Part shown: in pieces, positions 3,597 through 52,340 of the stretch
How positions within the stretch are numbered: the first letter of the stretch is position 1
How the letters are laid out: each line of letters starts with the position of its first letter
NCBI GenBank assembly: GCA_016211945.1
Contig: JACRHV010000003.1
Location: 5,631-69,630, forward strand
Origin: Minisyncoccota bacterium
GTDB taxonomy: Bacteria > Patescibacteriota > Microgenomatia > UBA1400 > UBA12028
DNA: 64,000 bases
Direction of reading: 5' to 3'
Position numbers and translations under genes: made by a program
Notes under the pieces: generated by a model
Told to the model about the DNA's origin: nothing
What the model saw: the letters and a program-made list of their open reading frames with translations, nothing else
The model's database searches: none

Positions 3597-5282
3597 ATGC
3601 GTTACTTCGTTTGCGTTGTATTTTTTTTCATCTTCTTTTATGCATCATCTCGTCTCCTTGCATTCACCATCGCCTCAGATCCACAGTATCTCGTCATGAA
3701 TTTTTCCGAGATCAATGAACTCAACTGGGCAGCTCCGGAACCACAATGGCAAACAGAAATTAAACCAAAAATACTCGACCAGCTTCACCAACTCCAACGT
3801 ACACTTCCACCCGGAACTTCACAAAGAAAATTGGCGTGGAGTACGCTCCAAGAATATATGAATGTTCCGCTTGACATCCCAAGTGAAACATCGTCGTATG
3901 TCATAAAAATGCGACGTATCCTGGAAATTGCAGAACAAGAAAACCTTCCAGTCTTCCTTCCACTCAACGGTTTTCAATGGTGGGACGAGTTGCCGGAGTT
4001 GTACAACTGGTGGGACCCCGACGGCACTCATACCCCCATAGTTTTCTTTACACGCCAACGTACACCAGACTTTAAAGACCGATTTATCCGCGGCTACAAT
4101 CCGGAAAACAAATGGAATGTTGAGTGGCAGTCACCAACACAACCCATGACGCTTAACTGGCGGAATTGGGGTGGGGGAGGGTTTCGACTTGCACCACCCC
4201 CCAACCTCTTCCCACATTCCCGCACAGCTCTCACCTATAGAAAAGTCCAAAAAGAGCGTTTTATCGCACTTATTACCGAACTTTCAAGCATTATAAACAG
4301 ATGGGAAAAAGAAGGAAGGGGTGATCTTTTTGCAGGTATAACCATTGGCACAGAAGTCTCATTGAACGCCTCCGTCACACCAAAAGACGAGTTTGAGCCG
4401 TACGGATTCCGATCCACACAAGATCTTCTTTGTTCCAAAGACAAACCAACATGCGCCATACCACCGGCACAACTCAGCCAGGCACGACAAAAAATAGTGT
4501 ACCGATATCTTCAAGATCTCGCACGAACCGCCACCCTTCTTGGCATTCCAAAACAGCGCATTTATACACACGTGTGGGGTGAAGTAAAACAGGGCGAGCC
4601 TAAATTTGAGAACTACGCACAGTCCGCATTCAATCCATATGCTCGACCAGGTATGAGTTTTTACGGATATGCAGAAGACCCATTTTCACTTCCCGTATGG
4701 AAAAACGAGATGGAACAACACGGCAATCCATCTTGGGGAGCAGTCGAATACTCCGCAGAAAAAACAGAACGTGTGTGGCAAAAAGGACTCACAAATATCT
4801 TTAACCCACCATCAACACCACCAGCAAAAATCGTCACCATCTATAACTGGACAGAGCACAAAGATACACCCGCGATAAAAGCAATCGCCACCATACTTCA
4901 AGACTATACTCCTCCCACGCAATGTTCTATTCCAGAAATTCTTCCCGAAACACAAAATTATTCCATCACTCAAACATTTTCATGGAATTACTTTCCAACA
5001 GAATCACTCGTACGTTTTTCGCCAACATTAGAATTCATCACAAGTCCCGGTCTTTTCCCAATTCCTCAAGAAAGCAATGTAAAAGAACTCGATGTGTTGA
5101 GCAAAAATACCACGATGTTTGATATAAAACCCGGCGTATATACCATCTCACTCAAGCTCACTGGCTGTGGTGGAAAACGTGTCAGCATATCAGAACCAAG
5201 AACGATCGTGATCCCTGTCCAACTCCCGCAAAATGATACGCCAGCGTGGGTACGATTCATCCTAGAACACAATGCTACGTAG
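3597..5282 (+). CDS. large secreted/membrane-anchored hypothetical protein (561 aa)
   Basis: N-terminal hydrophobic segment (FFFIFFYASSRLLAF); Trp/Pro-rich; no recognisable catalytic motif. Confidence 0.5.
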   Translation: MRYFVCVVFFFIFFYASSRLLAFTIASDPQYLVMNFSEINELNWAAPEPQWQTEIKPKILDQLHQLQRTLPPGTSQRKLAWSTLQEYMNVPLDIPSETSSYVIKMRRILEIAEQENLPVFLPLNGFQWWDELPELYNWWDPDGTHTPIVFFTRQRTPDFKDRFIRGYNPENKWNVEWQSPTQPMTLNWRNWGGGGFRLAPPPNLFPHSRTALTYRKVQKERFIALITELSSIINRWEKEGRGDLFAGITIGTEVSLNASVTPKDEFEPYGFRSTQDLLCSKDKPTCAIPPAQLSQARQKIVYRYLQDLARTATLLGIPKQRIYTHVWGEVKQGEPKFENYAQSAFNPYARPGMSFYGYAEDPFSLPVWKNEMEQHGNPSWGAVEYSAEKTERVWQKGLTNIFNPPSTPPAKIVTIYNWTEHKDTPAIKAIATILQDYTPPTQCSIPEILPETQNYSITQTFSWNYFPTESLVRFSPTLEFITSPGLFPIPQESNVKELDVLSKNTTMFDIKPGVYTISLKLTGCGGKRVSISEPRTIVIPVQLPQNDTPAWVRFILEHNAT

Positions 5283-26849: not shown

Positions 26850-26914
26850 CGTGTTCTTTCTCAGTAATCCAGATGTATTTGCGCATTGTTGACACCCTGT
26901 GATATAGTATCTCC

Positions 26915-27178
26915 CACAAGTAAACTGTATAAAGCGCTAACTGGAGTCACGATCCAGGAGCTGCTCGCCAAAATGCGAGACGGAAGCTTCACCGTAAAAC
27001 CAAGCAGTCGATGTCGCTCAAGCGGAGTCGGCCCAAGAGCTTCTCAGAAAAATGCTGAGAAGAACAAAGGATGGGACCGCGGGAGGTCCTTTTTTATTGC
27101 GCAAATGTTTTGCGCAGGATGCCTCTCGTTCCTTACAGATCACAGTTGCTGTGGTGTGTAGCGAACGGGAGGTTTTTT
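26915..27178 (+). promoter_or_regulatory. T-box riboswitch leader (predicted tRNA-His specific)
   Basis: 27067-27086: helix A1 AAGGA, 7-nt bulge UGGGACC, helix A2 GCGGGAGG, matching the T-box consensus AGGGUGGNACCGCGG. A2/A1 3' strands CCUCUCGU-UCCUU (27122-27134) overlap the 5' arm of terminator CCUCUCGUUCC...GGAACGGGAGG-UUUUUU (27122-27178). Upstream hairpin CUGGA-GUCACGA-UCCAG (26941-26958) carries CAC. Promoter-like TTGCGC/TATAGT at 26879-26908. Confidence 0.7.
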
Positions 27179-27214
27179 GTTAGAAAAATAAAAGAGGAAA
27201 AAAGAAAGGAATAT

Positions 27215-50450: not shown

Positions 50451-51707
50451 TTATTCCTCTCCTTTTTTCACCATCTTCACCATCTCCTCCATCCCAACTA
50501 TGGGACTCTCTCCACCGGCACGCGCCTTCACCTCAACCCTGTCTCCTGTCTTCTCAGACACTACCACGCGTAAGGGCAACCCAATCAAATCAGCATCGGT
50601 AAACTTCTCACCAGCACGAAGATCTCGATCATCCCAAAGCACTTCTACCCCTGCTTTTTGCAAAAGATCGTACACGCGTTGCGCTTGTTCTTCTGCTTGA
50701 ATATTTACGAGATGAACCTGATATGGTGCAACTTCTTTTGGCCACACCAACCCTTTATCATCCGCCAAAACCTCAACCATCGTGCCCATCACACGCGAAG
50801 GACCAATGCCATAGCATCCCATCACTGGATTATGCTTTTTCCCCTCAGCATCGGCGTAGGTTACATCAAAAGCTTGAGAAAATCGCGTACCTAGTTTGAA
50901 AATATTTCCAACCTCAATTGATCGCTTTTCAATCAATGATTCCTTTTTTACCCCTAACTCTGATAATACTTCATCGGTATACACTTCTTTGTTGATTGCG
51001 ACTTTTTTCTCCTCGGAAACATACACGGTATCTTCGCCCACATCAGAAATGACCTGAAATTCGTGTGAGAATTTTGAGAATACGCCGCCGGATGCAAAAG
51101 TGAGATAGATCACGTTTCCCAATCCAACTCTCGTAAAAACGCGTCGATAGGCCTCGGTTGCCTCCAGATAAAAACGATCCAAGTCAACTTGATCGATATG
51201 GAACGAGTACATGTCCTTCATTAAAAATTCGCGTCCACGCATGATCCCGCTTTTTGCGCGCGCTTCATTCCGGAATTTTGTTTGAATCTGGTATGGCGCA
51301 AATGGAAGATCTCGATAAGACGAGATAAACTGCTTTGCCAAAGGCGTCACAACCTCTTCATGCGACCATCCCAATGCAAACTCCTTGCCGTCATAAAGTG
51401 CGGTTTTAAAAGGAACATCCAAGTCCCACCGCTTCGTTTTTTCCCACAGTTCCTTCTGCACCAACGCAGGCATGAGAATTTCTTGTCCGCCAATGGCATT
51501 CATCTCTTCTCGAATAACAGTGTTGATGTTATTGATTACGCGTAGTCCCAAAGGCAAAAACGTATAAACACCCGCTGAAAGTTGATCGATGTATCCAGCT
51601 TTTTGCAACAGCGTTTGATTTTTCGACTCATATTGTTTCTGATCTCGTTTGGTTTGTCCAAAATATTTCGAATATTTCATATTTGTTTCCTTTTTGTGTT
51701 TCTTCAA
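50451..51707 (-). CDS. proS: proline--tRNA ligase (compact form without editing insertion)
   Basis: N-terminus aligns with bacterial ProRS ('QLSAGVYTFLPLGLRVINNINTVIREEMNAIGGQEILMP'); class II motifs; 418 aa. Confidence 0.9.
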   Translation of the reverse strand: MKKHKKETNMKYSKYFGQTKRDQKQYESKNQTLLQKAGYIDQLSAGVYTFLPLGLRVINNINTVIREEMNAIGGQEILMPALVQKELWEKTKRWDLDVPFKTALYDGKEFALGWSHEEVVTPLAKQFISSYRDLPFAPYQIQTKFRNEARAKSGIMRGREFLMKDMYSFHIDQVDLDRFYLEATEAYRRVFTRVGLGNVIYLTFASGGVFSKFSHEFQVISDVGEDTVYVSEEKKVAINKEVYTDEVLSELGVKKESLIEKRSIEVGNIFKLGTRFSQAFDVTYADAEGKKHNPVMGCYGIGPSRVMGTMVEVLADDKGLVWPKEVAPYQVHLVNIQAEEQAQRVYDLLQKAGVEVLWDDRDLRAGEKFTDADLIGLPLRVVVSEKTGDRVEVKARAGGESPIVGMEEMVKMVKKGEE

Positions 51708-51710
51708 TTT

Positions 51711-52052
51711 TTAGTACAATTTTCCTCCGAGTTGTGCTCCCTGCTTGCTTGGTGTAATCAGTATACATCCCCCTTCGCCATCCGGCACCCCGAGCGTCAG
51801 TGCTTCGCTCATGAACGGCCTAATTTGCTTTGGCGGAAAGTTCACCACACACAGCACTTGCTTTCCCAAGAGTTCTGCTTTCGTATAGTACTTCACGATT
51901 TGTGCGCTACTCCACCGCAAACCAATTTCTGGTCCAAGATTGATGTGAAGTTTATATGCGGGATTTTTTGCTTCCGGAAAATCGAGTACTTCCTCTATAA
52001 CACCGACACAAATTTCGAGTTTTGCGAAATCGCCATAGGTGATCGTTGTCAT
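51711..52052 (-). CDS. CsaA/Trbp111-like tRNA-binding domain protein
   Basis: EMAP/Trbp111 fold ('KLEICVGVIEEV...KLHINLG...LCVVNFPPKQIRPFMSEALTLGV'); start at Met 52052 with AGGAGGAAG RBS. Confidence 0.7.
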   Translation of the reverse strand: MTTITYGDFAKLEICVGVIEEVLDFPEAKNPAYKLHINLGPEIGLRWSSAQIVKYYTKAELLGKQVLCVVNFPPKQIRPFMSEALTLGVPDGEGGCILITPSKQGAQLGGKLY

Positions 52053-52340
52053 GCTTCCTCCTTTTTTATACAAAAAACCGCCCATGCATAACTCAGAACA
52101 TTTGCTCTGAATCATGCACAGGCGGTCATCCTTGCGATCTTTCGCGGATGAACGCGGTACCACTGCGCTTTGATCTCTTTGCTCTATATCGGGAGCCCCC
52201 GAACGGGTTCCGCTGTTACGCTGTGCCCGTCACCGACCTTTTCAGGAGTAAGGACCGGATTTCCTTACCTTTCGGTTGAGATAGAGTATAGCATACGGGG
52301 CAACTATCATTCTCCAGGCTTACTTTCAAGGCTTGTCTTC
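52053..52340 (-). promoter_or_regulatory. T-box riboswitch leader (predicted tRNA-Pro specific)
   Basis: minus strand AGUGGUACCGCG (52154-52165) matches the T-box core. Helix A1 GCGCAG/CUGUGC, bulge UGGUACC, helix A2 GCGUUCAUCC/GGAUGACCGC. Overlapping 14-bp terminator CCGCCUGUGCAUGA...UUAUGCAUGGGCGG followed by U6 (52072-52125). Candidate specifier CCU in an internal loop. Confidence 0.75.

Follow-up and report, generated by a model that had tools for sequence, protein, structure and literature searches.

Does the RNA leader upstream of a csaA-like gene and proS form a T-box and, if it does, at which codon does it read its tRNA? The locus lies on the minus strand of a 64,000-nucleotide (nt) stretch of contig JACRHV010000003.1 from a Minisyncoccota bacterium, referred to here as the window. 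The first-pass annotation had described the intergenic region as a proline-type T-box within 288 nt. The region was the right one, with a correction to its extent: the gap upstream of the csaA-like ATG at 52052 is 273 nt, 52053-52325 (-), because the stop codon of the upstream open reading frame (ORF) of 130 amino acids (aa) sits at 52326. The leader elements, namely a -10 box, a structured 5' domain, a T-box core, an antiterminator and a terminator, span minus strand 52290-52072, and the whole region of 291 nt has a folding z-score of -4.66 relative to shuffled sequences. The answer reached below is that the leader is very likely a tRNA-sensing, T-box-type transcription-attenuation leader of an atypical short form.

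The 11-mer GTGGTACCGCG (T-box core GUGGUACCGCG) occurs only once in the window, at 52163-52153 (-), compared with 0.01 occurrences expected from dinucleotide shuffles. Of the 14 nucleotides most conserved in T-boxes, AGGGUGGNACCGCG (consensus from PMC11297988), the core has 11. When the segment 52168-52116 was folded alone, it gave exactly helix A1, a bulge of 7 nt and helix A2, at -22.9 kcal/mol. The core, A1 (GCGCAG/CUGUGC), the UGGUACC bulge and A2 are therefore present where the first-pass annotation had placed them, and they covary as described below. That annotation had also called an overlapping terminator with a stem of 14 pairs followed by U6; the overlap and the U6 tract were borne out but the stem has 22 pairs. 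Both A2 and A1 have their 3' strands within the 5' arm of the terminator (52125-52104), so that the antiterminator and terminator folds are mutually exclusive. The antiterminator is the weaker of the two, about -23 versus -37 kcal/mol.

A search with the CsaA protein recovered 13 further orthologous loci (L081 and L161-L172), and the synteny rseP-rpsT-prs-...-leader-csaA-proS is kept in them. Eleven leaders were aligned, giving 10 distinct complete sequences, that of the window included, after removal of near-duplicates. Standard pairs filled 90.9% of the 440 cells of the MAFFT alignment, which was left unedited, and 15 of the 42 pairs had changed on both sides. The covariation score of this alignment was 0.310, as against 0.160 in shuffles, none of 500 of which reached the observed value, and 0.05-0.11 with slid partners. 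In an alignment made by hand and verified on the actual sequences, 319 of 320 cells were paired, the pseudoknot included. Covariation was thus observed directly in every helix and in the pseudoknot, as were the motifs, the mutually exclusive folds and the operon context. Helix A1 is paired in all 60 cells and the outer pairs of A2 covary from G-C to A-U. The bulge UGGUACC is invariant in the 11 aligned sequences, UGGU is kept in all orthologues, and a terminator with U5-U7 is present in all of them. The minimum free energy (MFE) fold of the window leader independently gives the helices named P1, P2, P3 and P4 in Table 1, the IIA hairpin and the terminator.

The 5' domain begins with a short Stem I arranged as a three-way junction of P1, P2 and P3. 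In the MAFFT alignment the pairing of P2 is complete (100%), and 4 of its pairs covary. The apical UCCG of this hairpin is unchanged in 9 distinct leaders while 4 of the 6 pairs of the stem beneath it covary, and UCCC, which is still proline, is found both in L171, the most divergent orthologue, and in the unrelated proS leader of L022. On the aligned sequences, the CCG/CCC of the P2 apical loop is the only conserved unpaired proline codon of the leader. The leader therefore probably displays a proline codon at the tip of P2, where the tRNA would pair with it, and specifiers in an apical loop are documented for T-boxes with a short Stem I (PMC7583486). The first-pass annotation had proposed a different specifier, a CCU followed by a purine. 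This CCU sits in P3, a hairpin that varies in sequence and from 9 to 35 nt in length among the orthologues, and it is missing from P3 of L081, L163, L165, L168, L170 and L171, that is from 6 of the 10 distinct orthologues; its lack of conservation rules it out as the specifier. A CGGA in the internal loop of the window leader was also considered as a partner for the apical loop, with which it could pair, but it is unconserved and was rejected. A leader peptide rich in proline codons was sought in the leader and none was found.

Stem I is followed by a Stem II-like helix, P4, whose outer helix P4a is paired in 50 of 50 cells with 3 of its 5 pairs changed on both sides. The sequence GGCACAG...RGAAC of this element is invariant in all 11 leaders. 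Next comes a Stem IIA/B-type pseudoknot in which the loop nucleotides GCU pair with AGC at 52183-52181, six nt downstream, to form IIB. The U-A pair of IIB is replaced by G-C in 5-6 orthologues, among them L164, L165, L168, L170 and L172 (GCG/CGC versus GCU/AGC). In L171 none of the three pairs is the same, its pseudoknot strands being wholly different yet complementary (CAAG/CUUG). An F-box-like CCGAUA lies in the pseudoknot and L171 carries the canonical CCGUUA at this element. The three loop-linker pairs correspond to the pseudoknot described for T-boxes (PMC11297988, PMC7583486), to which the F-box belongs, and in the ileS T-box of Mycobacterium tuberculosis the linker pairs with three nucleotides of the Stem IIA/B loop (PMC11297988). 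Stem III is absent from the window leader; L171 and L172 have extra hairpins at the position of the linker.

These elements suggest the following mechanism. Transcription would start just past the extended -10 box and would stop by default at the terminator, before csaA and proS. When uncharged tRNA-Pro accumulates, its anticodon would pair with the apical CCG, the most likely isoacceptor being the one with anticodon CGG. This codon contact would be buttressed, and the discriminator oriented, by the IIA/B pseudoknot and by the Stem II-like helix, whose internal loop is purine-rich and invariant; the free 3' terminus of the tRNA (A73-C-C-A) would pair with UGGU of the bulge. The otherwise weaker antiterminator would be stabilised in this way and RNA polymerase would read through into csaA and proS. 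The discriminator base A73 is a prediction for the tRNA-Pro of this organism; the sole tRNA-Pro found among the loci of relatives (L111, another organism; anticodon UGG) has A73.

Table 1. Positions of the leader elements, the genes of the operon and the histidine-related elements. Window positions are given unless a locus is named.
Feature	Position	Strand	Details and basis
Extended -10 promoter element	52285..52293	-	TGCTATACT; TGnTATACT at constant distance from the leader in the window and the orthologues listed in the text
Short Stem I, three-way junction P1/P2/P3	52232..52276	-	MFE fold and covariation
P1, ACCG/CGGU	52276-52273 with 52235-52232	-	39/40 cells paired (hand alignment); double changes at 1 pair
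P2, GUAAGG/CCUUAC	52268-52263 with 52253-52248	-	60/60 cells paired (hand alignment); double changes at 4 pairs
P2 apical loop	52254..52262	-	AAAUCCGGU; invariant U, then the candidate specifier CCG (52258-52256)
P3 hairpin, variable	52237..52246	-	CCUGAAAAGG; carries CCU and purine (52246-52243)
Stem II-like helix P4	52203..52230	-	Outer ACGGG/CCCGU, internal loop CACA/(G/A)GAA, variable apical hairpin; covariation
Stem IIA/B-type pseudoknot, 21 nt	52181..52201	-	IIA CGGG/CCCG, loop GGCU; covariation
Purine-rich linker	52169..52180	-	AAAGAGAUCAAA; AAAGAG in most orthologues, ACAGAG in L172
Antiterminator	52116..52168	-	A1 GCGCAG/CUGUGC, bulge UGGUACC, A2 GCGUUCAUCC/GGAUGACCGC with a small inserted hairpin; fold and covariation
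T-box bulge UGGUACC, 7 nt	52162-52156	-	Between A1 and A2; UGGU at 52162-52159
Intrinsic terminator	52072..52125	-	22-bp stem 52125-52078, then U6 52077-52072; -36.6 to -37.2 kcal/mol
Shine-Dalgarno sequence of csaA, AAGGAGG	52057..52063	-	8 nt past the U-tract; sequence and segment coordinates
csaA-like gene, free-standing tRNA-binding-domain protein, 113 aa	51711..52052	-	PF01588 and NCBIfam models
proS, bacterial-type ProRS without INS editing domain	50451..51680	-	Domain models
Bulge UGGGACC of the second leader	27072-27078	+	
His-codon leader-peptide loci	L173 275-520; L174 925-1203; L176 920-1203		Sequence

A second T-box-like leader lies at about 26900-27200 (+) of the window, ahead of an operon that extends to 31589, and it too was missed by Rfam. 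It has an A1 helix AAAGGA/UCCUUA, an A2 helix GCGGGAGG/CCUCUCGU, an overlapping terminator with U6, a IIA/B-like element (ACGG-AAGCUUCA-CCGU...AAGC, with an F-box-like CCGUAA) and a hairpin of 5 bp with the 7-nt loop G-U-CAC-G-A. Downstream of it lie a hutH equivalog, a gene for a thrC-like pyridoxal phosphate (PLP) enzyme, an ORF of 126 aa and hisS, encoding HisRS. Bacterial tRNA-His has C73, which requires UGGG, and the bulge of the second leader therefore fits tRNA-His. The U-CAC-G of its loop and the UGGG of its bulge together support the apical-loop reading of the codon in the proline leader. In relatives the hutH-PLP(-hisS) operon has instead a leader ORF with His codons (CAU CAU CAC CAC or AAU CAU CAU AAC) and a terminator. 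The operon would therefore be controlled by histidine starvation through two different devices. That a 'histidine ammonia-lyase' should be induced by histidine starvation is paradoxical; the hutH-like enzyme may have a salvage or reverse role in this operon, which in L173 also has a gene with a HisG domain.

The closest ProRS relatives of the window proS are from metagenome-assembled genomes of Patescibacteria (Paceibacterota), and the CsaA-like protein of the window has an identical counterpart in such a genome of 'Candidatus Pacebacteria'. A ProRS scan of the genome collection gave 80 loci, from Patescibacteria and others, and a T-box-like UGGUACC core was found ahead of proS in L022 only. 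This locus, from an uncultured Patescibacterium, has at 2799-2981 a shorter proS leader with UGGUACC, A1 GGCAAGA/UCUUGCC, a terminator, the apical loop UUUCCCG and a K-turn-like CGU-GA/GGA arrangement, and it is probably a related proline T-box with a short Stem I. Among 80 metagenomic csaA loci the leader was found in L081 only. A strict scan for UGGNA antiterminators across about 0.9 Mb of Patescibacteria loci (the neighbourhoods of proS, csaA and hutH) gave no leaders beyond the proline leaders and the histidine leader, plus two probable coding false positives; a looser scan for UGGNA-type motifs was too noisy to use. The first-pass annotation had remarked that two T-boxes in 64 kb suggested wide use in this lineage. 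The second element is indeed present but does not establish wide use: most relatives lack the leader and the strict scan found no others.

Within the set of orthologues the genes around the leader are not uniform. In L164 (2855-4321) and L165 (2855-4336) the ProRS is archaeal/eukaryote-like, with a ProRS-C_1 domain and a length of 488-493 aa, and the leader, the CCG loop, UGGU and csaA are retained; the same exchange for an archaeal-like ProRS has probably occurred in L167, L168 and L170. An extra ORF of 83-123 aa, without a Pfam match, lies between the terminator and csaA in L165 (2172-2423), in L166/L167 and in L170 (about 123 aa), and in this subgroup the leader heads a three-gene unit.

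Several observations weigh against the T-box interpretation of the proline leader. A cmsearch with the Rfam model RF00230, which the first-pass annotation had suggested, gave no match in the window at the gathering score or at E<=1, nor at E<=10 in a slice of 501 nt or in one of 94 nt that holds the discriminator alone. The model was equally silent on the orthologues and relatives (20 related loci, L022 among them, and the L171 leader). The leader lacks the long Stem I of canonical T-boxes, along with its specifier internal loop, AG bulge and distal loop; conserved distal motifs and an elbow-binding platform were likewise not found, and reviews describe such a platform as generally required in transcriptional T-boxes (PMC7583486). 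By inspection of the window's clade, no K-turn (GA motif) with tandem G.A/A.G pairs beside a 3-nt bulge was seen at the P1/P2 junction at the base of Stem I. The 4x4 internal loop of P4, CACA/RGAA, differs from the AGUA/GAA S-turn (loop-E) consensus of PMC7583486. The base 3' of the CCG is G, A or U and so is not always a purine, and the apical loop also holds, in other frames, an invariant UCC and a CGN. The nearest ProRS relative in the genome collection, L001 at 69% identity, has no leader and no csaA, its proS following straight after rpsT. Finally, the tRNA genes of the window are those for tRNA-Gln and tRNA-Leu only, with no tRNA-Pro. As an aside on the former, ARAGORN calls an 82-nt tRNA-Gln(UUG) at 4391-4472 (-), where the Rfam tRNA model was silent at its gathering score.

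The silence of Rfam is not proof of absence since RF00230 is a model of class I and comparison among the orthologues supports the structure strongly. In the TBDB, the short-Stem-I class needed a covariance model of its own, applied only to Actinobacteria and to class-I hits (PMC7778990), and since this separate model was required, RF00230 would be blind to the present leader. Short Stem I's have no elbow-binding double T-loop and rely on Stem II and the IIA/B pseudoknot (PMC7583486). The presence of other frames in the apical loop means that the assignment to proline rests on context. The proline register is preferred because the regulated synthetase is always ProRS, because UGGU fits A73 and because the U-NNN arrangement matches that of the histidine leader.

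The specifier was the main point of an alternative in which the leader is a canonical class-I RF00230 T-box whose specifier, CCU and a purine, occupies a Stem I internal loop on the 3' side. The CCU-G at 52246-52243 does occupy the place of a canonical specifier, flanked by the upper and the lower helix of Stem I, and the proline T-boxes of Bacillus subtilis use CCU. However, RF00230 is silent at every threshold, the CCU is inside the stem of the variable hairpin P3 and is lost as described above, and the AG bulge, distal loop and K-turn are lacking, making this alternative very unlikely. If the CCG of the apical loop is instead in the wrong frame, the discriminator might sense another tRNA, with the loop read as UCC (Ser) or CGN (Arg). 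Every loop contains UCC, those of L171 and L022 included, and in the CGN frame the third position alone differs (CGG, CGA, CGU and CGC). Nevertheless, the first aminoacyl-tRNA synthetase gene of the operon is always proS, whichever type of ProRS it encodes. Bacterial tRNA-Ser has G73 and would need UGGC rather than UGGU. In L171 the CGC frame enters the closing base pair, and the U-NNN register agrees with the U-CAC-G of the histidine leader. A tRNA other than tRNA-Pro is accordingly an improbable ligand.

It could also be argued that the decoding domain, which departs from all modelled T-boxes, is a binding site for a protein (ProRS, CsaA or another RNA-binding protein) that operates the attenuator from the 5' domain, with the likeness to T-boxes being convergent or vestigial. 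Autoregulation of aminoacyl-tRNA synthetases through tRNA-like leaders exists, thrS of Escherichia coli being an example. Proteins of the CsaA/Trbp group bind RNA 3' ends (PMC11286949). Against such an attenuator stands the invariant 7-nt UGGUACC between covarying A1 and A2, which is the device that binds the NCCA end of tRNA. The bulge of the histidine leader, moreover, switches to UGGG as expected for tRNA-His, and T-box decoding modules have their counterparts in the pseudoknot and the F-box-like element; we would give a protein-operated device only a small chance. That nothing here is regulatory, the region holding only the terminator that ends the upstream 130-aa gene and then a csaA promoter, with motifs that arose by chance, is scarcely credible. 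A terminator after an ORF is ordinary, and a promoter scan listed no sigma-70 site here. The terminator is nevertheless 200 nt past the upstream stop and downstream of the conserved -10 box, L161 keeps the leader without the upstream ORF, and neither the core, with 0.01 occurrences expected, nor covariation over 42 pairs is accounted for by chance. The T-box-type leader thus remains the preferred explanation.

Turning to the remainder of the locus, TGnTATACT is found with the same spacing to the leader in the window, L161/162, L081, L163, L164, L165, L168, L170 and L172, and the position of this -10 box predicts a transcript start at about 52278. The Shine-Dalgarno sequence of csaA is free, being outside both alternative folds. 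The genes downstream are, as the first-pass annotation had it, those of a CsaA-type tRNA-binding-domain protein and proS. The CsaA-like protein exceeds the cutoffs of PF01588 (44.6 bits against 27), NF007494 (129.8 against 109), NF007495 (129.5 against 117) and TIGR02222 (122.5 against 119.65). Its nearest solved structures are those of CsaA (2q2i, E=1.4e-30), with Trbp111 at only 3e-9, and its identity to solved CsaA proteins is about 50-60% over the aligned region. The probable start of proS is the ATG at 51680, judging from the ProRS alignment with L081, which begins at residue 10, and from the Shine-Dalgarno-like AAAGGAAA before this ATG. Only 30 nt, with no terminator, separate the csaA stop from the proS ATG and the two genes form one operon.

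Gene callers place the start of csaA too far upstream, so that the predicted ORF takes in the terminator and the T-box core. The example in the window is a GTG-initiated ORF of 150 aa at 51711-52163 (-), which is an artefact, the real start being the ATG at 52052 behind AAGGAGG; upstream-extended calls are also seen for proteins P0005 (137 aa) and P0016 (149 aa). Such extended calls can conceal the leader in annotations.

The adjacency of csaA and proS is not confined to loci with the leader. In Patescibacteria, csaA is beside proS in several independent, differently arranged loci, namely L012 and L021 (both Saccharibacteria; about 4811-5153), L082 (545-2666) and L111 (124-2004), the last with the arrangement tRNA-Pro(UGG, A73)-csaA-proS. 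Among the 80 metagenomic csaA loci the adjacency was found in 3, the other 77 having no adjacent proS. The likeness of the protein to CsaA, which carries the annotation of secretion chaperone, exceeds that to Trbp111, and it passes both the tRNA-binding-protein and the CsaA NCBIfam models. Trbp111 binds the 3'-terminal CA of tRNA and not the elbow (PMC11286949), and this is the same end of the tRNA that is sensed by the T-box bulge. The CsaA-like protein may plausibly have a functional connection with ProRS or with the switch. No report was found in the literature of a member of the CsaA/Trbp111 family under T-box control or in a conserved proS operon, and no paper was found linking T-boxes with Patescibacteria or the candidate phyla radiation (CPR).

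A broader interpretation, which we put forward tentatively and hold to be rather doubtful as a whole, would join these observations. Some Patescibacteria (CPR) might possess a distinct T-box subclass that terminates transcription yet lacks the elbow platform held to be needed for co-transcriptional capture of tRNA, and whose decoding depends on a codon in an apical loop together with a Stem II-like helix and a pseudoknot. The CsaA/Trbp-type protein, as a binder of the CCA end, might then serve as a cofactor of ProRS and/or provide feedback on the riboswitch by competing for uncharged 3' ends. The repeated and independent linkage of csaA with proS across Patescibacteria, surviving the exchange of ProRS type, would in that case reflect a partnership.

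T-box catalogues rest almost wholly on RF00230 and a class II model restricted to Actinobacteria, so leaders such as these are invisible to surveys. A T-box coupled to a terminator and without an elbow-binding Stem I challenges the rule that transcriptional T-boxes need a platform for fast capture of tRNA, and at about 200 nt it offers a compact natural scaffold. CPR bacteria, in spite of their reduced genomes, would keep feedback from tRNA charging on at least proS and a hisS operon. The genetic tie of a CsaA/Trbp-type protein to ProRS is also a testable lead on the cellular role of this family.

How, then, does the leader compare with known T-boxes? It shares with the canonical RF00230 T-boxes, such as B. 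subtilis tyrS, glyQS and the proline leaders, the logic of an antiterminator over a terminator ahead of an aminoacyl-tRNA synthetase gene, as well as the core GUGGUACCGCG, the geometry of A1, bulge and A2, the IIA/B pseudoknot and the purine-rich linker. It differs from them in having no long Stem I, S-turn specifier loop, AG bulge, distal loop or Stem III, in the 14-nt hairpin inserted in A2 and in giving no match to the RF00230 covariance model.

A closer likeness is to the T-boxes with a short ('ultrashort') Stem I, class II of the TBDB, represented by ileS of M. tuberculosis and Nocardia farcinica. These also have an apical-loop specifier and no elbow platform, together with a Stem II helix, a compact IIA/B pseudoknot (three loop-linker pairs and an F-box) and the bulge UGGN-ACC (PMC7583486, PMC11297988). 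The class II ileS leaders sequester the Shine-Dalgarno sequence and so act on translation, whereas the present leader ends in a terminator plus U-tract, with a free Shine-Dalgarno sequence beyond it. Its Stem I belongs to a three-way junction that carries an additional, variable hairpin, and no K-turn is recognisable. The Stem II loop CACA/RGAA departs from the S-turn consensus, and the present switch also differs in its host, a Patescibacterium, and in its amino acid, proline. The leader is thus a new combination, in which the short-Stem-I decoding module of the mostly translational actinobacterial T-boxes is joined to a transcription terminator.

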